DNA of 64,000 bases from Candidatus Poribacteria bacterium (GTDB taxonomy: Bacteria; Poribacteria; WGA-4E; JAJDTR01): contig CBDCTK010000002.1 in assembly GCA_965222225.1 (NCBI GenBank), forward strand, positions 4,128,001 through 4,192,000, given 5' to 3'. The position numbers and the translations under genes were made by a program. The notes below the pieces were generated by a model. The model worked only from the letters and a program-made list of their open reading frames with translations. It did not search any database and was not told where the DNA came from. This document shows, piece by piece, positions 2,131 through 42,555 of this stretch. Position 1 is the stretch's first letter, and each line of letters begins with the position of its first letter.

Positions 2131-2254
2131 GATCAAGGGAACGAATAGTGACTGCGATAGAGATCCATGAAGGTATATAGAAACACCAAAACCCCGTGCA
2201 CATAAGCCCCAGCGCGGGATCAAACGAACGAATAGTGAGTGCGATAGAGATTCC
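2131..2254 (+). repeat. Two GATCAA-NN-GA-NN-GAATA...GCGATAGAGATCC units inside a REP-doublet remnant
   Basis: Units at 2131-2166 and 2218-2254. The spacer aaggtatatagaaacaccaaaaccccgtgcacataagccccagcg matches the REP doublet at about 48163-48220. Confidence 0.8.
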
Positions 2255-2296
2255 GGCAGGTTGCAAGGTATCAGGAACCGCTTGAGACTTTTTCAA

Positions 2297-2389
2297 TGGT
2301 CAACCAAAAAGACCAAATGTCTAAAATCTCCCCCGCTTTTCTTCAACGCTTGATTGACACCGTTTGTTGTCTCGCTCAAATGTACAAAG
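2297..2389. repeat. About 95-bp dispersed repeat, copy 1
   Basis: tcaaccaaaaagacca.atg..taaaatctcc.cc..ttttcttcaacgcttgattgacacc...tgttgt...aaatgtacaa recurs at about 42620-42710. Confidence 0.8.
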
Positions 2390-2442
2390 TCGATCTAAGT
2401 CCGATTGTAACTTAATCAGGAATTGCGCGATTCGGTTTTATC

Positions 2443-3303
2443 TTAAGCTATCGTGGGGCCGTCGCCAACCAGTGTGGTACGGTGCAAGATACGTGCGTAT
2501 TTGTTTCCATCCCATGGTCGAGCGCGGTGCAGGCAGCACATATTGTCATATACGACGAGATCATTCGCGCGCCATTTGTGGCTGTAGACGAACTGTGGTT
2601 GGGTAGACCAGTCCAGCAATTCCTTCAGCAACGCTTTGCCCTTTTCAAGGGGCAAACCGATAATGTGCGTTGCATAGGAACCCACCAGCAGCGCCTTTTT
2701 TCCCGTTTCCGGAATTGTCCGCACCAAGACTTGGTTCTGAGACGGTGTCTCCTCCAGAAAGGCTTTGCTCATCAAGTTCGGCGCAATCTGATCACGTGAG
2801 TGTGCCAAGCTGTGTTCTGCGACCAACCCCTCAAGGCTCGCCTTCTTTTCCTCGGACAAGGTGGCGTAGGCGGCGCACAAGCTGGCGAATTCGGTCCCCC
2901 CGCCGTCCGGAGGAACGACCTTTGCCGCTAACAGTGATCCTCGCAACGGTACGCGCTTGAACGAGCCGTCGGAATGCCAAAGTCCGTTGCCCCGGTGATA
3001 GACCATCCGGGGGTCCTCTGGCGGAATGAGTTCCTCATTTTCATCGAGGTTCGTAAGAACACCGACGGGGCCGCCGTCGCCGATGGGATCATTCCGCATC
3101 GTCATTTCTATCTTGCCCAAGCCTTCCGTGAACGTGACATGCTGTTCGTCCGTGATTTCTTGATCGTGGAAGATCAGAACCGCGTGTTCAGCAAGCGTGG
3201 TGCGAAGTTGCGCGAACGTTTCTTGGCTAATTGGCGAAGTAAGGTCAATACCCTGTACCTCGGCTCCGATGTTTTCTGTCAGTTTACGAACGGTGAATGC
3301 CAT
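2443..3303 (-). CDS. TauD/TfdA-family 2-oxoglutarate/Fe(II) dioxygenase
   Basis: WHSD (HxD), DN.CCLHRA (distal His), LHRT, and the N-terminal IGAEVQGIDL. Confidence 0.92.
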   Translation of the reverse strand: MAFTVRKLTENIGAEVQGIDLTSPISQETFAQLRTTLAEHAVLIFHDQEITDEQHVTFTEGLGKIEMTMRNDPIGDGGPVGVLTNLDENEELIPPEDPRMVYHRGNGLWHSDGSFKRVPLRGSLLAAKVVPPDGGGTEFASLCAAYATLSEEKKASLEGLVAEHSLAHSRDQIAPNLMSKAFLEETPSQNQVLVRTIPETGKKALLVGSYATHIIGLPLEKGKALLKELLDWSTQPQFVYSHKWRANDLVVYDNMCCLHRARPWDGNKYARILHRTTLVGDGPTIA

Positions 3304-4033
3304 TGTCTCGTCTCATCAATCTTATCAACGCAGCCACGGGAAAACCCCTAGCGAGTCAGGTGTCAACTATATATTATCGGTGGGAAAAAAGCAATAGAAA
3401 AATATGTGCTGTAGTGAGTAGCAAAGCAATCCTCCGGTTGTAGTGGATGTAGAAGTGTGTTATGGCTGCGACGAAATCTATTGGTAAGTCCACTTCCGTC
3501 CGGGATTCAGTTGTAGGAGCATTCATGGCTGCGTTGCGGGACTTGAGAGCAACCCTCGGGACGCCTACGGTTTCTTGTGGATCGACTATCATGAACTATG
3601 GTATAATTACAGCGTTTCCGCACAGTAGTCATGTCCTTGAATCGTTAATCATGGAACAGAGCAATCGCTGATTCCTTTCCACTGCTCTTCGAAGTCACAG
3701 TCCATAATGTCCTCGAATCGGTTGGTATTGCCAAGAAATCTACCTGAATTCGCGGCGGATCGAAATGCTTCAAACCAGACTGACGATTTAACCCTCCAAT
3801 GCACCACGCTTTCAGTCACGCTCGATTTGTAAGAAGCCGGATCGATACCCGTCGCTGATTCTCCTCTGCTCAGAAATTAACAAATCAAAGTACCGGGTAA
3901 TGAGGTGCCGTCTTTGTGCACAGTCCCTCCCGTTTCTGAAGCCACGTTTATCTTTCCGGGGTAACTCGGCAGATTAGCATCCGGCTAGCGGTGACCTTTA
4001 CAAGTGATTGCCCCATTTTCGATAGGAGGAATC

Positions 4034-5026: not shown

Positions 5027-5080
5027 TGATGTGTGCGACGCGGTTGACACATCCGCTTATTTTCAAAATAGGAGGAACAG

Positions 5081-7085: not shown

Positions 7086-7470
7086 GGGGTGCGCTTGGTC
7101 GGTGGCAGTTAACGTTGTCTGAACTGTGATTCATGAGAATACGGGATTACCTTGATTGTACGTGATTAGTTGCGAGTCATGAGGCGACTATTCCGCATCT
7201 TGCAGCCACTAGGAATTAGGGAAAAAACCTAGTCTATAAGAAAAAAGGGATGAACGGAGTGAACAGCGAGTGGGATGGACTATCGCACGGGATTTGCTAT
7301 CGATCAAGTGAGCGAAAAGCGAACGCGATAGCCAGTCTTGCTCCTTATTCAGTCGCTTGATCGATATTCACTCACTTGACCGATAGAGGTCCCTTGCGCT
7401 AAAAACTGTCGGTTGATGTCTAGAATATTGTAATTCGCATATTAATTTTGCTCTGACTAAGGAGGAAAAA

Positions 7471-10535: not shown

Positions 10536-10624
10536 TGTAGGGGATCAAAGGAGCGGATAGCGACTGCGATAGAGATCTTCTCCAGGCCGAGACTTCATAT
10601 CGCGAGCAGAACTCGCTCCTACAG
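10536..10624. repeat. GTAG-type REP doublet whose left arm is replaced by a GATCAA/GCGATAGAGATC unit
   Basis: Right arm tcgcgagcagaactcgctcctacag is intact. Left side reads tgtagg-ggatcaaaggagcggatagcgactgcgatagagatc. Confidence 0.65.
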
Positions 10625-14510: not shown

Positions 14511-14537
14511 TGAGTGTTCATTATAGAGGAGTTTGAC

Positions 14538-26209: not shown

Positions 26210-26324
26210 ATTGGTATCTCCTTTGATGTTATGTATGCCAACAATCGTGTTGACCGAATCATTTTGAGACTGCTTTCGTAAGTCCTATCTATCTAGCAAA
26301 TTACTGCATCCAAAATATCGATCC

Positions 26325-26353
26325 AATATAGCACGGTGGTGGGTTGCTGTCAA
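26325..26353 (-). promoter_or_regulatory. sigma70-type promoter for the Gfo/epimerase operon
   Basis: Minus strand TTGACA-17 nt-TATATT with TG extension. Confidence 0.6.
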
Positions 26354-26429
26354 TCACATAAAAAACGTAAATCGGAGCAATTGTCTCTATTCATGTGTGG
26401 AAATCCGTTATCTTGCACTCCTAATTCTC

Positions 26430-27910: not shown

Positions 27911-29270
27911 CACGACCGGGTTTCCATGACGGCCTGACTTCCAACAGCAAATCGAATCTTCCTCTTTATAGCCAAACGCCCTGCAGTAGTTCTATTTGCT
28001 TGTTCGCTTTCCTCGGTGCTATACTTGCCACGCTATTCTACTTCGGTACAATAGCTGTTGTCAAATAAGCGATAGAGCAATTTAGCGCCATCGTCGGTTT
28101 CACGAGGCGCGCTGCTGACAGAAATCGAACCCAATGTGTCTTATCATACGTTCTATCGACTAATCGACTCCCGCGGCAAAACCAATCCGTGAAGGAAAAA
28201 ACTTGAGAATTGAAAACGTCGACTTTCCCAAACCGTTGATAGAAGCCTTGCATGACAACGAACTCGTAGTGTTCGCTGGGGCTGGCGTTTCAATCGGTAA
28301 ACCTGCCCGTCTGCCCAGTTTCAGATCGTTGACCAATATTATCGCCGAAGGTACCGGGAAAACGGCGCGCGATGGCGAGACGCCTGAGCAATTCCTCGGA
28401 AGATTAAAAGACCAAGGCGTAAAAGTGCATGTGCGCGCTGCGCGACCGCTTTCTCAAGAAGGTTTGCAGGCTACGGCCCTTCATCAAGATCTTCTTAGAC
28501 TCTATCCTAAAACAGCGCCCGTTCGCCTCGTCACCACTAATTTCGATCCCCTGTTTGAGCAGGCAGCCTTTGAGCAGGCAGCCGAGGAAATATTCGACAG
28601 TTCGCCAGAAGTATTCCGGGCACCCGCGCTGCCTTTGGGACGTGAGTTCGACGGCATTGTTCATGTTCACGGTTCAGTCCGTCGCCCTAACGAGATGTTA
28701 CTTACGGATAGAGATTTTGCTCGCGCTTATCTGACCGATGGCTGGGCTCGACGCTTTCTCGTCGAACTTTTCAGTAATTTCCGAATCCTCTTTGTTGGCT
28801 ACAGTCATGACGACACGATTATGAATTATCTGGCCCGCGCGCTTCCTGCCGGTTCGGAATACCAACGTTTCATTTTGACCGGTTCCGAAGACAAGAAACC
28901 CTCTGATGATTGGCGTTCACTAGGGATTGAACCGATAGTCTACCCTCAGGCTAACGAAAATGACTATAGTGAACTCGACACAAGCATTCATGGCCTCGCC
29001 GAACTTGTACAGCGACGCGTTGTTGTTTGGAATGATGAAATAACCAATATAGCGCAAGTTCCGCCTCCCACTGACGAGAATAAGGCAGATCTCATTGAGT
29101 ACGCGCTAAGCGATGAAGTAAACACAAGGTTCTTTGCAAAAGCGGCTTCAGATCCTGATTGGATTGACTGGCTCGACGAGCGTGGACATTTGACCGCGCT
29201 ATTCCGCGACGATATACTCACCGCGCAAGCCAAAACCTTGTCTTGGTGGTTGGCAGATCGATTTCTTTTC

Positions 29271-30518
29271 GGAATTAGTAGCTTGTAGCTTTTAGACTGA
29301 CGACAAACATAAAACTTGGTACCCTGTCGTAAATCTTTTCGTCACACGTAGATGTCCATAGTGACTATTCTTCTCGTAGGAGTTTGCTATGGACATTTTG
29401 AATCTTATGAAAGAGTTTCCAAATCAAGAATCTTGTCTCAGATTTATAGAGGAAAAACGTTGGAAGGACGGTGTTTGCTGTATCCACTGTGGCAGTGAAA
29501 AAGTTGGACGCAAGAACAAAAACGACATTACTACTGGTTGGAATTGCTACGATTGTGAATCTAGCTTTTCGGCTACAGCAGGAACCATCTTCCATGGTAC
29601 CAAGATACCTCTCCAGAAATGGTTTTTGGCTATCTCAATTCTTTCCAATGCCAAGAAAAGCATATCGAGTTGTCAGCTTGCTCGTGACTTGGACATGAAT
29701 CAAAAGTCCGCTTGGTATATGGCAATGCGCCTCCGTGAGAAAATGAGTGATAGTGATGAATTGCTGAAAGGGATAGTTGAAGCGGACGAAACCTATGTCG
29801 GCGGCAAACCCAGAGCAAAATCTAAGAGAGGTAGAGGCACAAATAAATCTCCCGTCATCGGCGTAGTCGAGAGAGGCGGTCGGGTGGTTGCTAAATTCAT
29901 GAAGGTTCTATCTGGTGAAAATATCAGAGAATTCATCCTTAGCAATGTCTCACCCGATGAGTCTATTCTTATGACTGATGAATTTCGCTCTTACAATAGT
30001 CTGGACGAAGATATCGAAAGACATGTTATCCATCACCAAGAGAGATATGTTTCTGAGGACGGCGTAACTCACACCAACACCATCGAGTCGTTTTGGGCTT
30101 GTGTCAAGAGGTCATTCTACGGAACGCATCATCACTACAGCAAGAAGTGGCTGCCACTGTATATCATGGAGTCTTGCTGGAAATATAATCGCAGAAAAGA
30201 TGATGAGATTTTCATAAGATTTTTTGATGAATGCTTCACCTGAGCCACATGAATTGTTTGGCTATCGGTATATTCTGTCAACGACAACATCATGGTGTGC
30301 TGAAAATCCCATAGTGTTGGAAATTAAAATCCCGCAGATAACCCGCAATGCTCCCGCGAGCATGTACAAACGCTTGGTCAACATGATATGCCTCCATTTC
30401 TCTCTTATAGAGATGTATTTTAGTGTGAATCAAGATTCCGAACACTGTCTAAAATGATTGTACATTAAGAAGAGAAAAGCAAGCAAATCGACCAAAAAGC
30501 AGTTAACTACTAAGTCCC
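29271..30518 (+). mobile_element. IS1595-family insertion sequence
   Basis: Imperfect inverted repeats GGAATTAGTAG / CTACTAAGTCC and a duplicated target tttctttt(c) at 29262-29270 and 30519-30527. Confidence 0.9.
29389..30243 (+). CDS. IS1595 transposase
   Basis: CIHCG...CYDC zinc ribbon, GTIFH.TK.PL.KWF, VEADETYVGGK, LMTDE and HTNTIESFW. Confidence 0.95.
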   Translation: MDILNLMKEFPNQESCLRFIEEKRWKDGVCCIHCGSEKVGRKNKNDITTGWNCYDCESSFSATAGTIFHGTKIPLQKWFLAISILSNAKKSISSCQLARDLDMNQKSAWYMAMRLREKMSDSDELLKGIVEADETYVGGKPRAKSKRGRGTNKSPVIGVVERGGRVVAKFMKVLSGENIREFILSNVSPDESILMTDEFRSYNSLDEDIERHVIHHQERYVSEDGVTHTNTIESFWACVKRSFYGTHHHYSKKWLPLYIMESCWKYNRRKDDEIFIRFFDECFT

Positions 30519-32971
30519 TTTCTTTTCAACCATGCAAACAGACTTTTCCTGCTCATTGGTAAGCATAATATGCGCTTGCATCCGCAGCTCTGGCGCGATA
30601 TGGGTTGGAAACTTGCGAGGAATGGTGAAGTTTTTTCTGATAAAGACACGCTTCGCCGCTGGTTTTCACTGTTGCTTACCTCTCTTCGAGAGAAAATAAG
30701 CATGAACGATCTGATGCATGTCGACACGGACTATCTCCTGCCTCAGATGGGTGAACTTTGCATAGCAAACGAAATGCTGGATGATTTATTGCAGATATTC
30801 GATTGGATGATGGAAAGTCGCATTCGGATTAACAAAGGATACTCGTGGCCTTCTGCCGACGATGACAGGGAAATACCCTCTGTTGATGCTGAATTAATTC
30901 CAATTAGCGAACAACACGAATTGAATGAACTGTGGGAAGTGGGACTGAAGCCTAAGCTACCTCAAGTAGCCAAGCCGTTACTCGATCGGGTAATCAGGCG
31001 GCTAGAAGGACAATATCTCACACTGTGTACTTGGGGAAAGGTGCACGGCACATGGGATCCAATGAGCGAGGGACGTTCTGCCATTGAGCCTGAAGAAGGG
31101 GATGGTAATACCGAATCGATTGATGTGATGATCAATGCGGCCCGCGATTGCCTCTTATGGCTGGCTTCCAATCAGGTAGAAACAGCGACACAATGGTGTA
31201 ATCGGCATGTGCGTTCGGGAGTAACTCTGCTACGCAGACTTGCGGTACATGGGGTGTACAAACGCGAAGATTTAACAGCAGACGACAAAATTGATTGGTT
31301 ACAAACACACATAAATCAGATTGGGTTGTCGGTTGGCGCCGAAGTGTTCCCGTTACTACAGCAAGCCTATCCCGAAGCCTGCCCGGCACATCGAAGCTCG
31401 CTTATTGAAGCCATGTGGACTTACCGTTGGCCTAAGGAAACAGCTTCGGACGGAGATAAGCATGCGGCAAGGCAACAATTCGACTGGTTTAATTGCATCC
31501 ATCGATGTGTTCCTGACTGCCTCTTGGCTAAAGCAGCGTTGGATAAAGTGTTGGCGCGGTACCCAGAATTCAAGTCGATGGTACCTCAACCTCCGACACA
31601 AGGAGGCATATCAGGTCCAATCGCGCCGCAAAGTGCTCCGCCCCCTGAAGAACTACCGCCAACACCTTCCGCCGATCAACTACACGAGTTACTGTCAAAT
31701 CAAACTGCAGCGTGGGATGAAGCTAAACATAGTCAAGTATTCCAGAGGCTTGTCAGAATTGAGTTGTATCCAAAATATAGTCACGCGATTGCCAATGCGC
31801 TCTATGCACTGGTAGAGAACGGTGGTCCCTCCTATGCCTTAAAACTACTCCCGCAAGCCCAGCGAATCGCTTCGGCACTGTGGCCCCATCTTGACCGGAC
31901 CGCGCCAATCGATGCAAGAGGAGACTGGCTATTCGCCGCCATGAATCACCCGGCAGGGCTCCTGGCTTACTTCTGGATATCTGCACTCTCACTCTGGCGC
32001 GAGCACCACGATCCTAAACCTACAATTCTCAACGATGACTATCGTAGGGCGCTGTCCGACATTGTGGTGGACCGGTCGCCGGCAGGTACGCTCGGGCGGA
32101 CGGTTCTCGCCAGCAAATTGCATATTCTCTTGGACGCTGACCAGGTATGGACACGTGAATATCTTCTTCCGCTTTTTGACCCGTGCAGCGATGACTTCCA
32201 AAGTGCGTGGGACGGTTTCGTAAAATGGGGAAAGCTCAATCCTTCGGTCGCTAAAGCCATGACTGATCTATTCCTCAAGGCAGTTACGCGGATCGGCACC
32301 GACCTCTTCAACCAACGTGATTCATTCGTAAAACACTACATCGCTATGCTCATAGATTCCATTTATATCGCCGAAGACCCTCTCAGCGAATGGATTCCTA
32401 AGATATTCAATCACGGCAGCCAAGATAGTCCTTCTGCCGATAGCGAACCTACGCTTTTTCCCCGCGCCAATCGATCTATTGCGGAGATCTTTGCATCAGT
32501 TATGAGTAGCCGCTTACGGAATATGCCTGAAACCGAGCAGCGGGAGTTGTGGGAGCACTGGCTCAAGGATTACTGGCAGAATCGCCTGGAAGGTGTGCCC
32601 TCCCCACTTATGTCTAGCGAAGCTAAACTCATGCTCGATTGGCTGACGGCTTTGACTGCGGTATTTCCCGATGCCGTCGCGCTTGCTGTCCAGATGCCAT
32701 CGACTTCGTTGGAGCGTACGAGGATTCTATCTTCTCTGGTGAAAAATAGTACATGGTTGAGCCATCCCGATGCGGTCGCGAAGTTATTGATTTATCTGTG
32801 GCAATGCGGTATACCGGCACACTATTGGCACTTAGTGCAGAAGATCGTTGCCCCCCTCGTCGAGTCGAAAATCCCGGCAGAACTTCAGCAGAAACTGGAG
32901 GACATCAGAATCCAACTCTAGCAATCAATGTGACCAGTTTCAATCTGATGAATCAGATTGATGACTATTAT

Positions 32972-33106
32972 TGTAGGGTGGAATCTGCGATCAAGCGACT
33001 GAATAAGGAGCGATCAAAGGAATGGATTATGACTGCGATAGGAATCTCTATAGAAAATCCCACGCGATAGAGCTCCCATAGCAAATCGCGTACGATAGAA
33101 AGTCCT
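32972..33106 (+). repeat. GATCAA/ATAGAG unit cluster following a GTAG REP start
   Basis: tgtagggtggaatctgc-gatcaagcgactgaata...gatcaaaggaatggatt...gcgatagagctccc. Confidence 0.75.
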
Positions 33107-33167
33107 TTGGCGCCAGTAGGGCGTGATTCGATACTGTTCAAATTCGTCGTATTCCGCTCTCGCCTTC

Positions 33168-34079
33168 TTACTTCCCAGCCTTATACCGCGCCACTGGACT
33201 CCGTTCCGACGGTGCCTCCCTCACATACCGCGCCGGCATCGTCGGCTCCTGCCACCGCCCCGCTCGTTGCACCTCCTTCACGCTTGCCCCGGCCTCTGCA
33301 AGCGACACCGCAGACCCGATACGAAGCGAGTGTCCGCTAATCAATCCCGTCACTCCCGCTTCCGCCGCCCGCCGCTGTATCGCCGCGCGCCCCCCCTTCA
33401 CCCCCAGCCGATCGTCAGTCACATGATTCTGGAAGCGTATCCTCCGGAACAAAGCCCCCGACGCAATCCCCGCTCTCGTTCGATACCGCTCTATCAACCG
33501 CCGTGTCGATTCACAGATATACAGATTCTCGCCCTGGTCCTCCCCGCTTGTCCTCTTGCCGTAGACCTGAAGCCCCTCGGCTCTAACATCCTCCACATCC
33601 ACTGCAACCGCCTCCGAGATGCGTAACAGGCAATCGCTCATCAGCCTAATCATGGCGGCATCACGGGTGCCCGCCGCGGTATCTGACGATTCCGCCGCCG
33701 CACACACCCGCTCCACTTCGTGCCACGTAAGCCCGTCTACCTGGCGCCGCCCGCGCCCTTTACCTTCGCCGCGGATATCAGACAATGCGCGAGCGGTGAT
33801 GTCCCCAACCACATTGCCAACCCCACGGTACTCCGCCATCCACTTCACCGCGGACACGACCAGCTTGATCGTCGCCGGCGATTTCCCCTGTGCATACAGA
33901 AACCTGATATATTCCGCCAGCACCGCATCCGATAGGGCACGTCCGTCTAGCCAAGCTTCCAGCTTGCGGCTCGCGTGCTCATACGCCTTGAGCGTGTTAT
34001 CCGCCACGTTTGCCCGAATCTCCTGCCCCGTACCCGCGGCGATTCGCAACCCCCTATCCGATTCCTTGCCTTGCTTCAT
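33168..34079 (-). CDS. Cre-like tyrosine recombinase/integrase
   Basis: RDAAMI....LLRISE, HSLRIG, GRW and the catalytic Tyr in PARY. Confidence 0.92.
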   Translation of the reverse strand: MKQGKESDRGLRIAAGTGQEIRANVADNTLKAYEHASRKLEAWLDGRALSDAVLAEYIRFLYAQGKSPATIKLVVSAVKWMAEYRGVGNVVGDITARALSDIRGEGKGRGRRQVDGLTWHEVERVCAAAESSDTAAGTRDAAMIRLMSDCLLRISEAVAVDVEDVRAEGLQVYGKRTSGEDQGENLYICESTRRLIERYRTRAGIASGALFRRIRFQNHVTDDRLGVKGGRAAIQRRAAEAGVTGLISGHSLRIGSAVSLAEAGASVKEVQRAGRWQEPTMPARYVREAPSERSPVARYKAGK

Positions 34080-34226
34080 GATAAACCCCTCGTCAGATTT
34101 ATACCACCGTTGCCATATTCATCGACCGCCCAAGCCGTCGAGCATAACTGGCACCCCAAGTGAACATGGCAACACGAATATCGTTACATACAGCCAGTGT
34201 TGAGGAATCTCGACCTTTCTGCCTTG

Positions 34227-34596
34227 GAGCCTGTTTGAAAAGTACAGTTTGTAGGGTGCGATCAAAGGAATGAATAATGACTCCGATAGAGATCCCCTGC
34301 GATCAAGCGAATGAATAATAAGCGATCAACTGAACGAATAGTGAAGGAGCAACTGACCGATAGGGAAGGCGGTAGAGATCCCATAGAAAGTCCTGATAGA
34401 GATCCTACCAGCCTCTAAAAGCCCCCAGAGTGGGATCAAGGGAGATCCAATGAGCGAATAGCGAATGCGATAGGGATCCCTGATAGAGACTGCGATAGAG
34501 ATCCTAACAGGTATGTAGCAGCCAACAATGAAAACATGAAAAAACTCTCTACAAATGACCAAAAATGGCTTTGCCACCGATTATTCAAACAGGCTC
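34227..34596. mobile_element. MITE (IS5-like ends), expanded 370-bp copy
   Basis: Terminal inverted repeats GAGCCTGTTTGAA...TTCAAACAGGCTC with TTG/TTA flanks. Homologous to 48094-48304. Confidence 0.85.
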
Positions 34597-35600
34597 TTAG
34601 AACACACCCTCCCTTACCATCGTTCGGTTCAACTTCTTCACCACCGCCGGCGTCACCGGATCGTTGTCCGGGAGGAATCCCTCTCCCTTCTTTAGTTTAA
34701 CAGCCGCAACACTGTCCAACTCAGCCAGCTTCTTAGCCCCTTGCACCGCCTTCAGATCGCCCCCGTAGTACTCGTACCAAGGCAGCTTCGCGTTTGTGTA
34801 ATCCTGAGCCGTCGGCGGCTTCCCTGGCGGCTCGCAACCCGTCACTTTGAGGAGCTCCACGCGCTATTCACGATATGAACGAAGCAGCGCGAGCCGGTCG
34901 ACGTGTCCCACGCATCGATGCCGTATTCGTCCTCGTATATCTCCTGCCGCATAAGACCGCCCGGCGCCAACCCCATCCGCGGTTCCTCGCGAAGTACATA
35001 GTAGTCTGCTCTGCTCAGGTTCTTATCAAGTGGCAGTTCCTCGTATATCGACCGCTTCATCGGATAGACAGCAATCTGGAGCCCGCCGTGCTCCGCCTCG
35101 CCCGTTAGCTGCTCCTCCGCCGTGAAACCCTCACCCAGCGGCATCGCCACGAACTGCCGAATTAGCCCCTTCTCCACGCAGAACCCGTCCAACCACGGTT
35201 GACCCGGCACCACCAAGTAATCCTGCCGCTCCCCGCTGAGCTCCTCCTCCCATGCCCCCCCGGTCACCGTGTTGACTTTGCCCGCTGCTATCTTCACCGC
35301 CATCGGATAGTCGCCGTGGAAACAGATCCACATCGCCTCCGCTTGATACATCGGGGTGAACACCCCGCCATGTTTCCTCCACGTTTCCGGCAAGTTATCC
35401 GGGTAGTCGTCCACTCGACTCAGCGGGAATCTCCCAAGCCCCGGCGGCAAATAATGTTTTCGGTTGTCGTCCGGAATCCGCAGCGTACGCTGGAATTCAA
35501 TCGCGAGCTCGGCAAATCCGTATATCTCCGGAAATCGAAATATAATCTAATCGTTTCTCAGTTCAATAGTTTTTTTCCCGTTCCTAGTCCTATTAGCCAT
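34597..35600 (-). pseudogene. Conserved hypothetical protein (FQRTLRIPDD...LPPGLGRFPL family), disrupted
   Basis: ATG 35600, an in-frame TAG near 35547, and a frameshift near 34860 separating ORFs 34842-35450 and 34597-34860. Confidence 0.75.
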
Positions 35601-35959
35601 AATCATAGACCTCTCTGTTTTTTAATTCCTGATGAGCAAAACACTTCAACACGTAATATGTATTATAACAGGATTTATATAACTTAACAACCGAAAACAT
35701 CAAGCCCTTTCCAATTCAGCCCCGCCGCCCTTGTAGCCCCTCTTCTACGGTCGCAATCCCCCGGCGGACGCGCCCGCTGTTCGTGGCGTGGGGTACGCTG
35801 CACACTGCTATCAAGCCAGCTAGCCGGCGAATACCGAGTGCGGTAGACATCCCCTCCAGCCGGCGCCGCGCAAATACGCCTAAGCAACGGGCAACGGCAA
35901 CCCTCGAAGCGATGCGGGCTGCTTTGGTGTCGTGCCGAGGCGCCGCCCTGCGCCACCAA

Positions 35960-36100
35960 CTGATCGAACATATTGATGGATTGAAAAACGATAAAGCGAA
36001 TGGCCAACTGACTGGATAATGAAGGATCCACTGAGATCAACCGACTGATTAGGGAGGACGATAGTAGATCCTGCGCGATAGAGTTCCCATAGAGATTCCA
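35960..36100 (+). repeat. GATCAA/GCGATAGAG unit cluster
   Basis: gatcaaccgactgattagggaggacgatagtagat.ctgcgcgataga.ttcc.atagagat is nearly identical to about 27807-27870. Confidence 0.8.
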
Positions 36101-36456
36101 TGAATCCTAGTTCGGACAATCCCGTCCCCTTCCCCACTCTCCACCGCTCTCTCAAGTGCAAAAGATTTACGGAGTTGGTAGTTAGAGACTGGCAATATTG
36201 AACAAGCACGTATACGTATGAGTGGGAGTGTAGTTATTTTCTGACACCTGCACATAAACGTGCTATTATACGGTAAGTATCAAGAAGTTCATCCGCTATC
36301 AGGGAAGGGTGGCATACGATAACAGCACACGACACAACAGCGAATTTATTATAGCGCTTCTCTATTGGCTTAGGTATAGTATAATGGGGCGGTTGCAACA
36401 CAGTGGCGATTGATTCGATACATGCAACACATGAAGATAAAAGAAGGGATAAACCA

Positions 36457-38358
36457 ATGACACGCTTTATTTGTATCCTAGCCTTGCTCCTAGGCCTGAT
36501 GACATGGGTATACGCCCAACCCGTCAACATGCCCGACCCAAACCTACGCACCGCAGTGCGCGAATCTCTTGATCTTCCAAATGGCGCACCGATTACGCGT
36601 GATGCTATGCTTCAGTTGATTAAGCTTCGTCCTGGAAGCCGCGGCATTGAAAATCTATCCGGTGTGGAGTTCGCAAAAAACCTCAGAGAACTATCAATCT
36701 GGGGCAACCCCATAACCGATCTCAGTCCTATCGCCGGACTAACTAAGTTGGAACTGCTGTACATGTGGGGGACACCGATTTCGGATATTACACCACTAGC
36801 GAATCTGGCGAATCTGATAAATTTGCGTCTGAACTATTGCAACGTTGCCGATATAAGCCCAGTTGCACATTTGCTTAAACTTGAGAAACTGTCATTAGCC
36901 GGAAATGGGATCACCGACGTTGGACCTCTTGCCAACTTAACGCAACTCCGACTCCTCAACCTCGAAAACAATGGCATTGTGGATGTGCGTCCGTTGGCGG
37001 GCCTGCGTCGATTAGAAACATTAACAATAGAGGGCAACCGTATAACAGACCACAGTCCACTTGATGGATTGTCGTTGGAACACTTTACACATGACCTCGA
37101 AACGCCGTGCGACATGGCGCCGCTTCCTTTGGAGCCTCGTATAGAGAATAGAAACTTCCCCTCCCTCTTTTCCGCCTGGATCGATCGGAATAAATACTCG
37201 GCATACGATTTGATCTTCTGCTGCCCTCGGTTCGAGAGTTGGCTTGTTGAAACGGCCGACGGTTTTCAATTCCGTACCGCGCATTCATCGTGGGATGGAC
37301 CGGTTCAGATACGCGACGGCTACCTAGAACAAAACCCGACTATGGTATTTTTGCACGGACTATCTGTAATTTGGCATGAGCTGGACTCCCTGCCCGAAGA
37401 TTCTCCTTGGTGGCTGCGTGATGAACAAGGGAACATACTTCCAGCCTGGGATATGGGCTTAATGAATCTTAATCATCCGGGTTGGCAGCAGCGGATGATT
37501 GACATAGCGGCGACTATAGATCAATGCGGTTTGTACGACGGGATTTTCATCGACGGCTGGAGTGAATGGCATAACGAACGGCGCGGGCAACTACCGGGGC
37601 AGGTGGCTATTCTCAAAGGGATACGCGAAAGGGTGCGGGACGATTTTCTTATCATGGTGAACACAAATACCTGGACAGCACCGGTGTCGGCACCTTACAT
37701 CAACGGACTGTTTTTGGAATCCGGCTTTCCGGGCGATAGCAACTCACCTGAAGATCTTGAAGAACGTCTGTCGGAACTAGAGGATACGCTGAGATGGGCT
37801 GAGACCACACTGCTGGAGCCTCGAATCACCGGACTCGAAGGAAGCAACTACCGTGACGAACCGCCAGACAACCCAAAGAATATGCGGTGGATGCGGGCGA
37901 CTACCACTTTGGCGCTCACGTTTAGCGACGGTTATGTTGCTTTCCCGTTACGAGGAGGACCTTGGTACGATTTCTGGAATGCCGACCTCGGACGCCCCGT
38001 CGGAGAGACTTTGCAGCTCTATGAACACCGCCCAGGTCTCTACATCCGTGAATTCACGAACGGTTGGGCGGTATACAACCACAGCGGCGCGGCGCAGGTT
38101 GTGACATTGCCGGAAGATGTACAATCAGTAGCTAGCGGATTGAGCAACACGGAACATGCCGTGCTTAACCTGGACGGCGATATTTTTTTGCGGGTGACGC
38201 CGAAGAATCCAGCGGACGTGAACGGGGACGGGGTAGTGAATATCTTGGATTTGACGTTGGTGGCACAGGGGTTCGGCGGCGATCGACCGGGCGCCGATGT
38301 TAACGGCGACGGCGTTGTTAATGTGTTTGATCTTGTTCTCGTGGCAAATGAGTTTTAG
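36457..38358 (+). CDS. Secreted LRR (internalin-like) + putative glycoside-hydrolase barrel + dockerin-like protein
   Basis: Signal peptide, about 6 LRRs (LxxLxLxxNxIxDxxPL), YDGIFIDGW...NGLFLE, and two DVNGDGVVN.(L/F)DL repeats. Confidence 0.85.
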   Translation: MTRFICILALLLGLMTWVYAQPVNMPDPNLRTAVRESLDLPNGAPITRDAMLQLIKLRPGSRGIENLSGVEFAKNLRELSIWGNPITDLSPIAGLTKLELLYMWGTPISDITPLANLANLINLRLNYCNVADISPVAHLLKLEKLSLAGNGITDVGPLANLTQLRLLNLENNGIVDVRPLAGLRRLETLTIEGNRITDHSPLDGLSLEHFTHDLETPCDMAPLPLEPRIENRNFPSLFSAWIDRNKYSAYDLIFCCPRFESWLVETADGFQFRTAHSSWDGPVQIRDGYLEQNPTMVFLHGLSVIWHELDSLPEDSPWWLRDEQGNILPAWDMGLMNLNHPGWQQRMIDIAATIDQCGLYDGIFIDGWSEWHNERRGQLPGQVAILKGIRERVRDDFLIMVNTNTWTAPVSAPYINGLFLESGFPGDSNSPEDLEERLSELEDTLRWAETTLLEPRITGLEGSNYRDEPPDNPKNMRWMRATTTLALTFSDGYVAFPLRGGPWYDFWNADLGRPVGETLQLYEHRPGLYIREFTNGWAVYNHSGAAQVVTLPEDVQSVASGLSNTEHAVLNLDGDIFLRVTPKNPADVNGDGVVNILDLTLVAQGFGGDRPGADVNGDGVVNVFDLVLVANEF

Positions 38359-38510
38359 CCTCGTATATACACCGTCGGCCGCAGCCGCGCGCACTTCGTG
38401 AATTCACGCACGAACTTTAGCTGTTCACGCCGCTTTTTCAGGAATGCCAAATCTTTCGCCTTTTCTTTTTCGCGACGTTGAGCGTCTAATCCATCAACAG
38501 GAATGGCCAT
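38355..38510 (-). CDS. Small basic protein (51 aa)
   Basis: AGGAGG RBS, then MAIPVDGLDAQRREKEKAKDLAFLKKRREQLKFVREFTKCARLRPTVYIRG. Shorter than any ORF in the supplied track. Confidence 0.5.
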   Translation of the reverse strand: MAIPVDGLDAQRREKEKAKDLAFLKKRREQLKFVREFTKCARLRPTVYIRG

Positions 38511-38743
38511 CTTGCTAACCTCCTAAAATGTGTGCCATTAGAATAGCCAAGTAATCAGTTTAATCATAGGTAAACAACAACGGGAACAGCTAACATACGT
38601 AGAAAAGCGCAGAACCAGCCGGTTGGCCCACCTCCCGCCATCGCACCGCACAGCAGATCAAACGCCTTGACAATGACCGCGATAGAGTTCTCATAGTGAT
38701 AGCGTCAGCATGAAAAGCGTCTTTGCTTCAGATTCCTACCAAC

Positions 38744-39070
38744 CTATTTCCTTACCATTACAATTGTATAGATCATCTCCTCTCCAGCCATGGTTGCAGA
38801 AAGATGAGTAAGGTCATAATTTTCGTATATTGGTAGATTGATCTCATTTTCAGCCGCAACGCGATTGGTCTCGACAAGCAACAAATATCGTCTATCCGTC
38901 TTCTCTGTGACTTGAGAAGACTCATCATGAAAGTGATATTTACCAGATGCCGAATCTATATGCCTTCCATCTCTATCCGTTCTCCCAGAATGAGAAAACG
39001 TGAAATCTGAAACGAAAATGATACAAGTAAGAAACGCTGCTATTACGAGCAACAACATCAAGATTCTCAT
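38744..39070 (-). CDS. Small exported protein with an HSGRTD/YHYH-like His motif
   Basis: RBS GGAGGG, a hydrophobic leader, and HSGRTDRDGRH....GKYHFH. Confidence 0.7.
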   Translation of the reverse strand: MRILMLLLVIAAFLTCIIFVSDFTFSHSGRTDRDGRHIDSASGKYHFHDESSQVTEKTDRRYLLLVETNRVAAENEINLPIYENYDLTHLSATMAGEEMIYTIVMVRK

Positions 39071-39728
39071 TTTTCCCCTCCATGAAAAGAGGGGCAACCC
39101 ACATAGGCTGCCCCACTGTTGAGGCAGTCCTACATGGCATAAACTCATTGCTCATGATAGGATCTCCCTTTGTTTTGTACTGACGCAGTACCTTTGCGCC
39201 CCCCGAATATCCATTCGGGATCATTGACAGATATTTAGTTAGATGTTATAAAAGCAACGGGTGACGCAAGCGAGTTTCCCACTCGCGTACCTTTGCGTTG
39301 CCTATGTCGTTCCTCTGCTTGTAGGTATTCGCAGTACCTGCAGGCAAGAACGGCATTACATCAGTCGCTGAATCTGCCGATGATTATCATATACGGGTGT
39401 CACGGCTCATGTCAACTCAAAAAAATCTCCTTCTTTGCTGTCTAAAGGATGGGGGTAAGTTCAGTGCGATAGAGATCTCATACATGGCCCTTCCATCTTA
39501 ATCCTACAAGAGATGTCACTAAGCGAATCCTAACCCGCGTAATCCATTAATCTGTGTAATCAGCGATTCAGACAATCCCCTCTCCTCCCCATTTACCCCT
39601 CCCTACCCCCTGACCATCAAGCGAGTGATTGGCGAGTGATCAAAGGAGCGAATAGCGACTGCGATAGACAATCCCCTCACCTCCCTCCACTTCCCACGCT
39701 CACCCCAATGTAAAAAACTTATTAACGC

Positions 39729-39757
39729 TTGACAAATCCGTCCTAACATGATATAAT
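39729..39757 (+). promoter_or_regulatory. Consensus sigma70 promoter
   Basis: TTGACA-17 nt-TATAAT with a TG extension. Confidence 0.85.
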
Positions 39758-39878
39758 CCCCGATAGTTGCACCACGCGGCATTGATCCGCTTCCACAATT
39801 TCATAGGCATGCGCGCGCGTTCCACCCTAGACATGATATCCGGGAAACCGCGCTGAACCAAGTCTCACGCCTTCATTC

Positions 39879-39939
39879 AGCCCATTGGTGGCTTTACCTG
39901 TTGTCAATCAACAGAAAGCCATCAGTGGGCTTTTTTTTT
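39879..39939 (+). terminator. Intrinsic terminator/attenuator
   Basis: Long stem agcccattggtggcttt..ctgttg / caacag.aaagccatcagtgggct followed by T9. Confidence 0.85.
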
Positions 39940-40055
39940 GGTAGTCGTGGCTGGCCGTAAAACTCCCGTGGTTAGCGATCAGCAGCGCCAAAAGGATATA
40001 TTGGTTCTTACCGGCCGCTGTCCGCCGGCAACTGCTTTATATGGAGAGTTAGAAT

Positions 40056-40589
40056 ATGTGCGAAACAAACGAAACACTCAAAATCTCACACGAAGACCAC
40101 CTAGATGCAATAGTGAACCGCGTCTACGAAAGCTGGGGGACCTCGCAGGTTGTTGATTCCTGGATGGAGAAATATCCCCGGTGGGCACATCTTGGTCGCA
40201 AGATATTTCGAGATGCCGCACGCGTTTCTAATCCTCGGTCTAACAAATTTTCAACCGAATACCGCGAAATATATGAGCGCACATTAGCGCACTATCGTGA
40301 AGAACGCCGCGCACTACTTGAAGCCATAGCTAGCAAGGCTTCAAGCGCAATTTCGCAGATTGTTGAAAGTGTGCGCTCAAACGTTACCAACGTCCCTATT
40401 GACAACGCCCACGACCTGCTTCATCTCTCTCGCGCTATCAACCCCCTTAAGGACATAGCGCTAAAGGCCTTACAAGAGATAGATTATGACCATAGTAACT
40501 CCCATGCCCGCAATACTAACCGAGATGCAGTCGATCGGCTGCTCCGCTACAAAGACTTGGCTGACGAACTCACGGAAGATGAAGGATGA
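40056..40589 (+). CDS. Hypothetical helical protein, candidate terminase small subunit
   Basis: RBS GGAG, 177 aa, overlaps the terL start. The call rests on position only. Confidence 0.5.
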   Translation: MCETNETLKISHEDHLDAIVNRVYESWGTSQVVDSWMEKYPRWAHLGRKIFRDAARVSNPRSNKFSTEYREIYERTLAHYREERRALLEAIASKASSAISQIVESVRSNVTNVPIDNAHDLLHLSRAINPLKDIALKALQEIDYDHSNSHARNTNRDAVDRLLRYKDLADELTEDEG

Positions 40590-42285
40590 TGAAGCGTTCT
40601 GCCAACTCAGAGCCCATGCCGGCTACGTCTACCCCAATCTCTTTGTCGATTACTACATCAGAAACACCAGCTACCAACTGCTCGCGCTCAAAGATTTCCA
40701 CATCGAAATCCTCAACGCCATCAAACCGGGCGTGTACGGTAAGCAAATAAACGTCCAAGCACCGCGCGGCACCGGCAAGACGACCCTCGTTAACGGTCTA
40801 ATCCCTCTTTGGAGGATCTGCTACAAACACTTCGATCTCGCCATGGATAGACAGCCGGAGGAGTTTATCCTCATTGTCGGTCGTAACGAACGTGCAGCGC
40901 GCCAACGCATAACCGAAATCCGCGACGTTCTCGAACACAACCCCCTCATCCGACGCGACTTCGGCGACCTCGTCGGTTCCCCGTGGACAAAAACCGAAAC
41001 CGACACCCGCAACGGCATCGGGCTGAGACCTCTCGGACGCGGCTCATCCCCCCGCGGCGCCCTCCTCGGCGATGTCCGTCCGACGTTGAAACTGTGTGAC
41101 GACATCGAAGATCCAAAACGCTGCCTCAATCCCGACCTCCGAGAAGAAGACAGGGACTGGTTCATGACCGACTTCATGTACGCCGGCGACCTGGGGAGCA
41201 AACACTCCAACACCATCATCGTCGATACCGTAAAACACCCCGAATCCCTCTCCGAACACCTCCGCGCCCTCCCCGGTTGGCGGACACTGCGGTTTGAAGC
41301 GGTGATGCATCCTGAAGACATCTACCACCCCACCGCCGAACGCCTCTGGAAACAGTGGGACGGATTCTATAGCGATACAACCCTTGACGACGACGAACGC
41401 GAAGAGAACGCGAATGCGTTCTACGCGAAACATCAAGATGAGATGTCCGGCGGCGTGAAGATGTTGTGGCCGGAAAAACTGTCGTACATCCACGTTCGCA
41501 AAGAGATTCTCGAACGCGGCTATCACCGCGTCATGCGCGAACTCCAAAACGACGCGCGCGACCCCGCGATGTCGCTCTTCAAGATGGATGGTGCTATCAC
41601 GTTCTCCGTCATCAAGGAAGGCTTTCGCCGCAGCGACGGGCATGTGGTTCCGTGGCACGACATCGGCGGATTCACCACCTACCTCGACACCATGGGCGGA
41701 CGCGATGCGGTTGCCAACAGCTACGCCTGCGCTGTCGTCATGGCGTGGGAACCGCTGCCCGGCGGCAGTTCCATGAACCCCGACTCCCTCTCCGGCGTAA
41801 ACGGATATATCCTGTCGGCGTGGATGGATCGCGTCGCATTGACCGAGCAAATGGAGCACGCCATCCTCCTCGCACAGCGCGCCGAGGCGATGTTGGCGCC
41901 CGCGTACCCGAAATCCCACTTCGTCTGCGAACAGCGGCCCGACAAAGACGGCACAATAAAGATGTCAACCGACCATGCGTTCCGTGCGATGAACGAGCGC
42001 CACCGCTTTGAACGCAGAATCATGTATCACAAACAGCACCAGAACAAAGAAGATCGAATCGGTACGCTTGAACCCGCGATAGCAAACGGCTGGCTCGCGT
42101 TTAACGAGAAAGACTTGCCGGGCGAGTTTTGGAAACAGTTTCGCCAATTCCCAACCGCCGACCATAACGACGCACCCGACGCCGTCCAAGGCGCCTGTCG
42201 CTCTCGCATCACGACCACCGCGCAACAACGCGTCGATCTATCTGCAGCTCGTCGATTCAACCGCAACCCCGTCGTGAGACTGTAA
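40579..42285 (+). CDS. terL: Phage terminase large subunit
   Basis: Walker A APRGTGKTT, RG....RP.L.LCDDIED (Walker B), LWPE, ELQN, and C-terminal QFP..DHNDAPDA. Likely start ATG 40579. Confidence 0.85.
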   Translation: MKDDEAFCQLRAHAGYVYPNLFVDYYIRNTSYQLLALKDFHIEILNAIKPGVYGKQINVQAPRGTGKTTLVNGLIPLWRICYKHFDLAMDRQPEEFILIVGRNERAARQRITEIRDVLEHNPLIRRDFGDLVGSPWTKTETDTRNGIGLRPLGRGSSPRGALLGDVRPTLKLCDDIEDPKRCLNPDLREEDRDWFMTDFMYAGDLGSKHSNTIIVDTVKHPESLSEHLRALPGWRTLRFEAVMHPEDIYHPTAERLWKQWDGFYSDTTLDDDEREENANAFYAKHQDEMSGGVKMLWPEKLSYIHVRKEILERGYHRVMRELQNDARDPAMSLFKMDGAITFSVIKEGFRRSDGHVVPWHDIGGFTTYLDTMGGRDAVANSYACAVVMAWEPLPGGSSMNPDSLSGVNGYILSAWMDRVALTEQMEHAILLAQRAEAMLAPAYPKSHFVCEQRPDKDGTIKMSTDHAFRAMNERHRFERRIMYHKQHQNKEDRIGTLEPAIANGWLAFNEKDLPGEFWKQFRQFPTADHNDAPDAVQGACRSRITTTAQQRVDLSAARRFNRNPVVRL

Positions 42286-42376
42286 AACTATTGCGCAACA
42301 CATAATCTATTGTATTCTTACACATTACTCATTACGGAGGTATTCATACGTAAGGTGAGATTAACCCACTTCGCCC

Positions 42377-42555
42377 TGTAGGAGCGATCAACCGAGCGAA
42401 TAGCGATCAACTGAGCGATTAGCGAAGGCGATAGAGTTCCTCATGTCTGTAGAGAGGAAACGCGCACAATCTTCGCGCTCCAGCTATATGTAGGGTGGAA
42501 TCAACCGAGCGAATAGCGAGGGCGATAGAAAATCCCGCGCGATAGAGATCCTACC
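42377..42555 (+). repeat. Two GTAG REP starts each continued by GATCAA/GCGATAGAG units
   Basis: tgtaggagc-gatcaaccgagcgaata... and tgtagggtgg-aatcaaccgagcgaata...gcgatagagatcct-accagcct. Confidence 0.8.

Follow-up and report, generated by a model that had tools for sequence, protein, structure and literature searches.

Repetitive extragenic palindromes (REPs) are short (20 to 40 nt) imperfect palindromes able to form hairpins. The SDR4-6 repeats of the Nostocaceae, reportedly described by Elhai et al. in 2008 (Genome Res 18:1484), are said to be mobile-looking repeats of 21 to 27 nt that have no transposase of their own and are nested in other repeats. Nostocaceae SDRs are mentioned in the parts of PMC3116915 and PMC5861425 used here, the latter giving none outside that family. 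According to the sections of PMC3333891, PMC3733652, and PMC3116915 on which we draw, the REPs, REPINs, and BIMEs associated with RAYTs in E. coli and Pseudomonas are extragenic imperfect palindromes in hundreds of copies, whose stems differ between copies yet stay complementary and hold a conserved mismatch, and which form clusters, mosaics with other short motifs, and some inverted doublets in genomes carrying Y1 genes. In the portion of PMC3333891 consulted, TnpA_REP requires the stem mismatch, and its strand transfer is proposed to create REP/BIME variability. The ends of IS200/IS605 elements have strand-specific subterminal imperfect hairpins, make no target duplication, and are coupled to replication, as stated in the relevant passages of PMC3333891 and PMC6006769. 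REPs within other palindromes have also been reported (PMC3733652, in the part used); in those cases of Di Nocera et al., a small palindromic repeat, a tagged REP dimer, lies regularly within one dedicated host palindrome.

The window analyzed here, a 64,000-nt stretch of a Candidatus Poribacteria genome, contains two short motifs, modules A and B, that are the two halves of one hairpin-forming, REP-like miniature repeat of ∼36 nt. One unit consists of a 23-nt A module, in which the conserved 5' word GATCAA is followed by a 17-nt imperfect hairpin, and then of module B, the conserved tail GCGATAGAGATCC. The hairpin follows the pattern N1N2-GA-N3N4-GRAYA-N5N6-GA-N7N8, in which a tandem G.A mismatch, itself conserved, lies between two 2-bp stems with compensating changes and G-R-A-Y-A makes up the loop. 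A preliminary description had read module A as fixed bases with freely varying dinucleotide spacers; these spacers proved to be a covarying stem, the N positions forming four compensating base pairs. In the 23 window copies, 91.3% of the cells at the four proposed pairs are standard pairs, versus 58.9% in shuffles (none of 500 was as high) and 18 to 48% in slid controls. Among 872 genome copies, anchored on the 5' half only, the four pairs were kept in 96, 92, 86, and 85%, versus 79, 48, 51, and 47% after shuffling. G.T cells occurred at 0.50 of the shuffle expectation and A.C cells at 0.24, values that favor pairing on the top strand; the structure of the unit is specific to one strand. With RNA parameters, the unit at 2131 to 2166 is predicted to fold into an outer GGAUC/GAUCC stem, inside which 2+2 bp enclose a GA/GA internal loop. 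RNA parameters put the hairpin energy at about -7 kcal/mol (z about -1.4) and DNA parameters at about -1 to -2 kcal/mol, a low stability that was counted against a mobile-hairpin reading. Rfam 15 gave no matches in the window at gathering thresholds, and a comparison of 26300 to 28000 with Rfam returned STnc390 alone (E = 0.92), outside the modules.

Searches allowing at most one mismatch gave 23 window matches to GATCAANNGANNGAATA (module A), against 0.17 expected and with none of 100 shuffles reaching 23, and 29 matches to ATAGAGWTCC (module B), against 5.8 expected. Every cluster named in the preliminary description was present, and no match lay in a gene of our crude gene call, in line with its report of none inside intact genes. 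Its statement that nearly all copies lie on the + strand is right for the window (21 of 23 A and 24 of 29 B) and wrong genome-wide (493 on + versus 379 on -), the bias being a regional effect. The window features, with the basis for each in parentheses, are as follows.

2115 to 2130, + strand: 5' arm of a REP-type palindrome, GTGGGGAATAACGAGG, with the 3' arm missing (orthologous spacer of congener G002, which has an intact imperfect palindrome here)
2131 to 2166, + strand: A+B unit, with A (GATCAA and hairpin) at 2131 to 2153 and the B tail at 2154 to 2166 (motif matches, RNA-parameter fold)
2205 to 2254, + strand: 5' part of REP class R3, AGCCCCAGCGCGG (2205 to 2217), then an A+B unit (2218 to 2254) (motif matches)
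7302 to 7392, both strands: inverted arrangement of A on + (7302 to 7324), two A on - (7346 to 7362 and 7365 to 7381), and a B-like word on + (7383 to 7392) (motif matches)
10543 to 10578, + strand: single A+B unit (motif matches)
26431 to 26506, + strand: GTAGGG tag (26431 to 26436), then an AABB array (A at 26437 and 26460, B at 26486 and 26497) (motif matches)
26594 to 26656, + strand: start of REP class R1, GTAGGGTGCGCACCGCGCACCAGCC, a downstream lone B word (26635 to 26644), and the end TACCAGCC (motif match, R1 canonical form)
27401 to 27471, + strand: degenerate A (27401) and an A+B unit (27436 to 27471) (motif matches)
27729 to 27870, + strand: array of A modules (27729, 27788, 27807) and B modules (27850, 27861) (motif matches)
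32973 to 33106, + strand: REP start GTAGGGTGG, then an A array from 32989 and several B-like tails (motif matches)
34251 to 34504, + strand: R1 5' part GTAGGGTGC (34251 to 34259), then an A B A A ... B B B array; a second block (34444 to 34504) ends in TAACAGGT, an R3-type end (motif matches)
36035 to 36098, + strand: A module, then three B-type tails (motif matches)
38657 to 38691, + strand: degenerate unit GATCAAACGCC...GCGATAGAGTTCT (B-pattern match, sequence reading)
39638 to 39674, + strand: single A+B unit with a diverged tail (A match, fold)
42378 to 42440, + strand: 5' part of REP class R2, GTAGGAGC (42378 to 42385), then an AAB array (motif matches)
42490 to 42559, + strand: R1 5' part GTAGGGTGG, an A variant beginning AATCAA (42499), two B tails, and the R1 3' remnant TACCAGCC (42552 to 42559) (motif matches)

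The composite of R3 5' part and A+B unit seen at 2205 to 2254 occurs about 40 times in the genome, and the long composite of 34251 to 34504 is also multicopy. Many copies are composite copies with shared ancestry, so fewer independent events took place than the copy counts suggest. Genome-wide, the 30-base core of the unit is present in 561 copies, and GCGATAGAGATC is the commonest 12-mer. On a chromosome that is only about 20% noncoding, 413 of 449 exact A copies (the other 36 overlap an ORF of the crude gene call) and 410 of 433 exact B copies lie wholly between genes, a share of 92 to 95%; no link to the type of spacer was seen. The arrays obey an A^nB^m grammar (AB, 430; AAB, 102; AABB, 54; ABB, 52; BA, 1), bearing out the earlier observation that A precedes B, and A and B numbers rise together, in keeping with nesting, with two or more B in 12% of one-A, 37% of two-A, and 60% of three-A arrays. 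Modules occur on both strands in 112 of 773 module-bearing spacers. Abutting A modules differ at a mean of 6.0 positions, versus 5.6 for random pairs, and none of 45 pairs was identical, which argues against local tandem duplication. A CRISPR array, with identical direct repeats evenly separated by unique spacers, was considered and rejected, since nothing separates the modules and neighboring A modules have a mean of 6 differences over their 23 positions.

The unit thus described has the REP features listed at the outset, inverted doublets among them (7302 to 7392 in the window, and some loci in named Candidatus Poribacteria MAG records). The earlier view that the motifs do not fit an ordinary MITE was not supported, since A is built like the imperfect palindromes of the REP type, with a mismatch preserved in its stem. 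Module A has the hairpin and the high intergenic copy number of a REP, but its 5' word is GATCAA, whereas in a REP the hairpin has its own conserved GTAG (or CGTC) tag at the base. Unlike the alternating REPs and inverted REPs with short linkers of BIMEs and REPINs, the arrays are mostly unidirectional, no RAYT was identified that clearly has the unit as its own flanking REP (in a REPtron, inverted copies of one REP flank the RAYT gene), and the unit sits inside other REP classes. In contrast to the cases of Di Nocera et al., it is untagged, occupies at least four REP classes as well as its own loop, and displaces part of the host arm. With IS200/IS605 ends and their gene-less derivatives (PATE-type MITEs), to the extent that these are covered in the passages cited above, it has in common a strand-specific hairpin, the lack of target duplication at the REP beside the Y1 gene, and a link to replication; it differs in being far smaller, and neither a fixed target tetranucleotide nor a full-length IS with its ends was found. 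The SDR4-6 repeats, as described above, are likewise mobile-looking, small, transposase-free, and nested, but belong to another phylum and have another sequence.

REPs of at least four classes, and A hairpins too, have units at or near their centers. A GTAG or a REP 5' part is found at most 22 nt upstream in 504 of the 1,206 arrays with at least one A, versus 6.3% of 20,000 random intergenic positions. GTAG alone was counted at that distance in 414 of the 1,206 (R1, 109; R2, 39; other GTAG, 266), and wherever the class of the host REP is recognized, the upstream GTAG belongs to it. The REP association described earlier holds for this subset of arrays; the sequence 5' of the units showed no constant target word. 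That units stand where part of a hairpin should be was supported by the congener with an intact imperfect palindrome where the window has a 5' arm followed by A+B, and at 2115 to 2166 the material replacing the REP arm extends well past one unit into other repeats. Junctions between unit and REP are constant within each REP class, differ between classes, and lie near hairpin centers; where a REP class has GATC at its center, the GATC of the unit falls at this position. The comparison of filled and empty sites proposed in the preliminary description yielded two sites that are filled or empty depending on the congener. The cleaner of the two, a REP adjoining a Y1 transposase gene, was filled in three congeners and empty in three and showed no target duplication. 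The filled and empty states carry no time order in these data, and loss or gene conversion could explain them instead.

The suggestion that the motifs are replication oriented was upheld by the genome scan. Orientation tracks gene-strand-corrected GC skew in 396 of 589 A clusters, 298 of 433 B clusters, and 127 of 173 R1 clusters, so that 67 to 73% are on lagging-strand sequence; over 48 bins, orientation and replication skew gave a Spearman coefficient of -0.51, and there was no link to gene direction. The hairpin-forming strand is mostly on lagging-strand sequence, i.e., on the leading-strand template. This bias is opposite to that of IS608-type elements, which use the lagging-strand template according to the part of PMC3333891 drawn on here.

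The 30-nt core was found in 20 of 176 genomes of the phylum, with hundreds of copies only in genera g1 (10 of 10 genomes, including G000) and g4 (4 of 4) and 1 to 14 copies in each of 6 further genomes; a reversed-pattern control gave none. Each of nine congeners holds 333 to 859 copies, and the element also occurs in named Candidatus Poribacteria MAG records. The Poribacteria carrying the repeat are sponge symbionts. The spacer upstream of the gene at 42741 contains different arrays in each of seven congeners, and the family turns over quickly between species.

A search for RAYT/HUH genes, also proposed earlier, gave five Y1_Tnp matches in the genome. The best, an intact gene (C2:3080255-3080728), has on both sides inverted R3 REPs with A+B units inside them; this gene and its homologs are flanked by that other REP and are present as well in genera lacking the element. 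A Y1 remnant (C2:3560268-3560543) has inverted A+B units on both sides, but strict patterns detected neither A nor B words within 700 nt of its intact homologs in G006, G003, and G008 (frame read). The distribution of the other Y1 families does not track the element, no parent full-length IS with the unit's ends was found at the five Y1 loci, and no cognate enzyme was found among the Y1 genes.

The explanation we prefer, with about even confidence, is that the unit is a REP-like nonautonomous element, a single-strand hairpin that Y1/HUH transposases perhaps move. The family behaves as nonautonomous mobile DNA would and may in this way have reached copy numbers in the hundreds in two Poribacteria genera. 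Insertion of new copies appears to occur at or near the center of other hairpins, those of four or more REP classes as well as the loop of A, and would remove anything between a few bases and the entire 3' arm of the host REP, the resulting composites then presumably multiplying as units. A transposase of the Y1/HUH kind (RAYT or IS200-like) would cleave and transfer single-stranded DNA in trans at the replication fork. Against this explanation stand the failure to find a cognate enzyme, the flanks of the Y1 genes, the lack of a constant 5' target word, a strand bias contrary to that of IS608, the weak hairpin, the shared ancestry of many copies, and filled and empty states without an order in time.

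It is unlikely that the units are instead structured sites selected by the host, either bound by a host protein (e.g., in replication or the nucleoid) or acting as RNA elements, with covariation reflecting purifying selection at each locus rather than selection for copying. Such sites would account for conserved unpaired positions beside covarying stems and for a strand-specific structure whose covarying fold is predicted by RNA parameters. An orthologous unit common to three species, with 2 changes in 36 nt that are both compatible with the fold, fits them as well, as do the orientation bias common to REP class R1 and the failure to find a dedicated transposase. However, the copy content of orthologous spacers is almost completely different between congeners, the element was not found in most genera searched, and closely related lineages manage without it. 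Nor do host sites sit well with units nested in other repeats and in each other, with the lack of any link to gene direction or spacer type, or with the lack of an Rfam family match.

Template switching or gene conversion without a transposase is also improbable. Replication or repair would stall at REP hairpins, and the nascent strand would switch by homology of a few bases (GATC, GC), copy another repeat, and overwrite the second arm. The class-dependent junctions near hairpin centers, the shared GATC, the long replacement at 2115 to 2166, the absence of target duplication beside the Y1 gene, the orientation with replication, and the lack of a cognate enzyme are all in its favor. The constancy of junctions within a REP class speaks against it, and copies of one class may descend from one event, so that few independent junctions are seen. 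It also leaves the conserved unpaired bases and covarying stems unexplained, and the restriction to two genera too, since REPs are present in other genera.

Reverse transcriptase writing units from an RNA template, raised earlier as templated or RT synthesis, is very improbable: one RVT_1-type gene is present, but it is a full-length AbiA-type defense RT (E = 4e-76, PADLOC AbiA model), a single RVT_1 family search gave no other match and no group II intron, retron, or DGR-type RT, and no candidate template gene was seen. The repeats are real, neither chance nor an assembly artifact; nothing was found to support a base-calling or assembly artifact at hairpins, which has a negligible probability given that contigs built independently from public run X1 (which may come from the source sample) cover 26980 to 27836, 27812 to 29295, and 30492 to 33016 with no differences, that the family is present in 19 other genomes of the phylum and in named MAG records, and that compensating stem changes are not expected from an artifact.

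Beyond a REP-like mobile element, we tentatively raise the possibility, itself rather unlikely, that the family represents a new class of ultra-small (∼36-nt) single-strand hairpin elements that target the apex of other DNA hairpins, including their own loop, are moved or written by machinery other than the classical REP-specific RAYT, and take their polarity from the replication fork. If this is true, one possibility would be that copying adds them to the nascent lagging strand at points where synthesis is stalled by REP hairpins.

The repeat family of the G000 genome (5.70 Mb in two contigs, 50% G+C; window at C2:4128001-4192000) is built from a unit of about 36 nt, in which module A (GATCAA and a 17-nt hairpin) is followed by a tail, module B. 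The commonest 12-mer genome-wide is GCGATAGAGATC. In the window, every cluster listed in the preliminary description was recovered, with 23 matches to module A (GATCAANNGANNGAATA, at most one mismatch; 0.17 expected), 21 of them on the + strand, and 29 to module B (ATAGAGWTCC; 5.8 expected). The chromosome carries 449 exact A words and 433 exact B words, and 413 and 410 of these, respectively, are fully intergenic by a crude gene call, under which 20% of the chromosome is non-coding. Arrays occupy 54.5 kb, or 0.97% of the chromosome and 4.8% of its non-coding DNA. The smaller contig, C1 (63 kb), has one exact A word and two exact B words, where chromosome density would give about five of each.

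The dinucleotides of module A had been described as freely varying, but a four-pair test showed that they belong to a covarying stem. The unit reads GATCAA N1N2 GA N3N4 GRAYA N5N6 GA N7N8 GCGATAGAGATCC, with pairs N4-N5, N3-N6, N2-N7, and N1-N8. Among 872 genome copies, found by a search anchored on the 5' half only, these pairs are kept in 96, 92, 86, and 85%, compared with shuffled values of 79, 48, 51, and 47%. Every stem position has three or four types of pair, and 781 of these copies carry the 3' GA, which lies outside the search pattern. The 23 window copies behave likewise: 91.3% of cells are paired versus 58.9% in shuffled sets (a level reached by 0 of 500), double-sided changes occupy 36 cells versus 11.1 expected, and slid controls are 18 to 48% paired. 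Relative to shuffle expectation, G.T cells are retained at 0.50 and A.C cells at 0.24, and the central GA/GA mismatch would become TC/TC on the opposite strand. The hairpin structure is therefore a property of the GATCAA-reading strand. With RNA parameters, that strand folds exactly as the covarying structure (about -7 kcal/mol, z about -1.4); DNA parameters give a marginal fold. Support for the stem is limited to the inner hairpin. Past both GATC words, the predicted outer stem showed no covariation (0.40 paired at the first position outside them, equal to the shuffled 0.40), and both GATC words are invariant. No Rfam family reached its gathering score within the window; one sub-threshold sRNA match lies outside the modules.

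Each unit contains two GATC words despite the scarcity of GATC in the genome. No 4-base palindromes fall further below expectation than GGCC (0.34) and GATC (0.57), a hint of restriction pressure. As evidence of methylation or restriction, GATC was discarded, its intergenic share (22%) being equal to the non-coding share.

The occurrence of the family in 19 other genomes, together with the compensating changes, excludes an assembly artifact; in addition, independently built contigs of the public run X1, which may be the source sample, match three array stretches with no differences. Apparent joints in run contigs were left out, as these were mostly cross-matches from other repeat copies. Contigs of an RNA-library run, X13, also cover arrays, and such contigs carry no strand, end, or expression information and are not proof of transcription.

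The arrays obey a one-directional grammar, A^n B^m, in agreement with the A-before-B order reported earlier. We counted AB 430 times, A alone 409, AAB 102, AABB 54, and ABB 52, and the reverse order, BA, once. An A module lies at most 90 nt upstream of 371 of the 545 B cores. By arithmetic on the array counts, the share of arrays that have at least two B modules is 12% when there is one A module, 37% when there are two, and 60% when there are three. Local tandem duplication was rejected as the mode of growth, since abutting A modules are no more similar than random pairs (6.0 versus 5.6 differences, with 0 of 45 identical). Because arrays richer in A modules are also richer in B modules and abutting A modules are as unlike as random pairs, units landing inside units fits the pattern better. 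One A variant illustrates such nesting: it is intact at window position 2218, and elsewhere its GAATA loop is split by a complete second unit, the composite being itself multi-copy. Four complementary pairs are kept in 7 of 17 split A modules (shuffle mean 4.2, maximum 7), in 3 distinct combinations; the test is nonsignificant because the composite copies share ancestry, and the case serves as an illustration.

Other hairpins are occupied as well. Arrays had been described as beginning right after a REP (repetitive extragenic palindrome) start and standing in place of the hairpin arm. An association with REPs holds for a subset: 504 of the 1,206 arrays with at least one A module have a REP 5' part or another GTAG no more than 22 nt upstream, compared with 6.3% of random intergenic positions, and the other 702 have neither. 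The REP classes concerned are R1 (TGTAGGGTGCGCACTGCGCACCAGCC), R2 (starting GTAGGAGCGATCTCC), R3 (AGCCCCAGAGGGGCGACAGGTG), and a fourth class starting GTAGGGAATAAC. Junctions are invariant inside each class, and the composites are multi-copy. In R1 composites, the R1 5' part leads into the array and then into CCTGCGCACCAGCC or TACCAGCC. In R3 composites, the 5' hairpin part leads into the unit and then into (C/T)ACAGGT; about 40 copies exist, versus 21 to 33 canonical R3 copies, a number that varies with the search pattern. A different hairpin repeat, containing CTCCAGCGGAGTGCGATGT and GCTCCAAAGGAGCGCAATGT, has copies at window positions 27600-27700 and resembles REPs that flank Y1 homologs of other genera.

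Comparison of orthologous REPs, as proposed in the preliminary description, revealed filled and empty states in two cases. In the spacer at 1990-2442, the congener G002 shows an intact imperfect palindrome at the place taken in G000 by the 5' arm (2115-2130) and, directly after it, A+B and further repeats; the segments between the same anchors are much shorter in four other congeners. Beside a Y1 transposase gene, R3 contains a unit of 35 to 37 nt in three genomes (G000, G001, and G005); three others (G002, G009, and G004) have canonical R3. At this second site the flanks on both sides are identical in G005 and G002, and no target duplication was seen between filled and empty congeners. On sequence comparison, the two states may reflect insertion, precise loss, or conversion.

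The strand bias anticipated with respect to replication was borne out, and it follows gene-strand-corrected GC skew. Of 589 A clusters, 396 have the GATCAA-reading strand on the C-rich strand, as do 298 of 433 B clusters. The Spearman correlation of strand choice with skew is -0.51 over 48 bins of 100 kb. R1 clusters behave likewise (127 of 173), and R2 clusters give a nonsignificant 55 of 103. Local gene direction had no effect on module strand. The corrected skew of the window is negative, which accounts for its excess of + strand A copies. In bacterial chromosomes the G-rich strand is usually the leading strand; here dnaA, at 2.61 Mb, sits on a negative-to-positive skew turn, which indicates the same assignment. 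The hairpin strand is thus mostly on lagging-strand sequence. The skew of the chromosome contig, C2, changes sign several times, and another DnaA-like gene, below threshold, is located at 0.60 Mb, which together suggest large rearrangements or assembly joins.

The arrays turn over rapidly between relatives. Upstream of the gene at 42741, the spacer arrays differ among all seven congeners compared, whose flanking genes are 78 to 90% identical. A 30-nt core pattern occurs 561 times in G000, 329 to 859 times in its nine congeners, 114 to 137 times in four genomes of a genus from another family, and 1 to 14 times in six further genomes of the phylum. It was absent from 156 of the 176 phylum genomes searched, a reversed-pattern control gave no matches in the same scan, and the viral collection gave none for the core. 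In a scan of the whole collection, all of the matches listed were Candidatus Poribacteria MAG records. Among nine loci taken from named Poribacteria MAG records, GCGATAGTCTT mostly stands in place of the usual tail after the hairpin, and inverted hairpin doublets occur in several places.

Other elements in the window also differ or recur among relatives. A further repeat of about 110 to 170 nt lies directly upstream of genes (2232-2399 and 42603-42721) and has many copies in G000 and all nine congeners, at 73 to 95% identity. The gene at 40486-42285 has weak terminase-large-subunit matches, and its 3' kb recurs in three more copies in G000 (78 to 91% identity) and several per congener. In an RNA-library contig of a related organism, 31757-33005 runs into 38682-39425 through 376 letters of other sequence, so that 33006-38681 (5.7 kb, three genes) is absent or replaced there; both edges of this gap fall in repeat modules.

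Candidate enzymes were sought among Y1 transposases, the family that includes RAYT (TnpA_REP) and IS200-like enzymes, and among reverse transcriptases. Y1_Tnp gave five matches in the G000 genome. The best of these and the one RVT_1 match are as follows.

C2:3080255-3080728, best Y1 match, 157 aa, passing the IS200 model
C2:4499560-4501572 (- strand; 514-2526 of extracted locus L049), AbiA-type defense reverse transcriptase, 670 aa, E value of 4e-76 to the PADLOC AbiA model

The second gene is the only RVT_1 match, and the earlier suggestion that a reverse transcriptase writes the repeats was disfavored, that enzyme being AbiA-like. The best Y1 gene is flanked by inverted R3 copies in a REPtron-like locus (L017 to L030 compared), and the REPs flanking its homologs in several genera change with them (e.g., GCTCCAGCGGAGCG...ATGT). 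From these flanks, the 157-aa protein appears to be the partner of R3 and not of the A+B unit. A homolog is also present in all seven genomes of one genus in which the first scan gave no unit copy. Matching a Y1 gene to the unit by phyletic pattern was tried with four queries and none fit; the distribution of the other Y1 families does not track the unit. One Y1 remnant has inverted A+B units on both flanks, and its intact relatives, read in three congeners, have no such flanks.

Few non-coding features of bacterial genomes are as common as REPs and related repeats, whose spread and diversification are, to our knowledge, still unsettled. In Nostocaceae, Elhai et al. (2008) reportedly described small mobile repeats lying within other repeats. 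A literature search for Poribacteria with "repetitive extragenic palindromic" returned only an unrelated review. In its anatomy, a conserved stem mismatch with covarying stems, the unit is like a REP-type imperfect palindrome. It resembles in both respects the REPs of E. coli, which passages of PMC3333891 describe as having covarying stems and a stem mismatch required by TnpA_REP. The same passages propose TnpA_REP strand transfer as a source of REP variability and tandem copies, and a portion of PMC3733652 records palindromic repeats inside other palindromes. Compared with known repeats, the unit differs in lacking a GTAG/CGTC tag, in its one-directional grammar, in occupying at least four REP classes and its own loop, in its bias to lagging-strand sequence, and in that no enzyme for it was found among the Y1 loci of the genome. 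The bias is opposite to that of IS608, whose active strand is on the lagging-strand template in the part of PMC3333891 that treats it.

The most likely mechanism, still putative, is that a Y1/HUH enzyme would move the unit on single-stranded DNA. Two other explanations are live rivals: the units may be selected, putative binding sites, or they may arise by template switching.

The family combines a clean covarying mismatch hairpin, occupied centers of several hairpin families, and a replication-linked strand bias, in a phylum of uncultured sponge symbionts. Its arrays flag sites at which spacers and gene order differ among relatives. Working out the insertion chemistry, if feasible, would reveal how hairpin repeats come to be nested and to form mosaic spacers, as well as whether Y1 enzymes from these genomes can act on hairpins that lack a tag.
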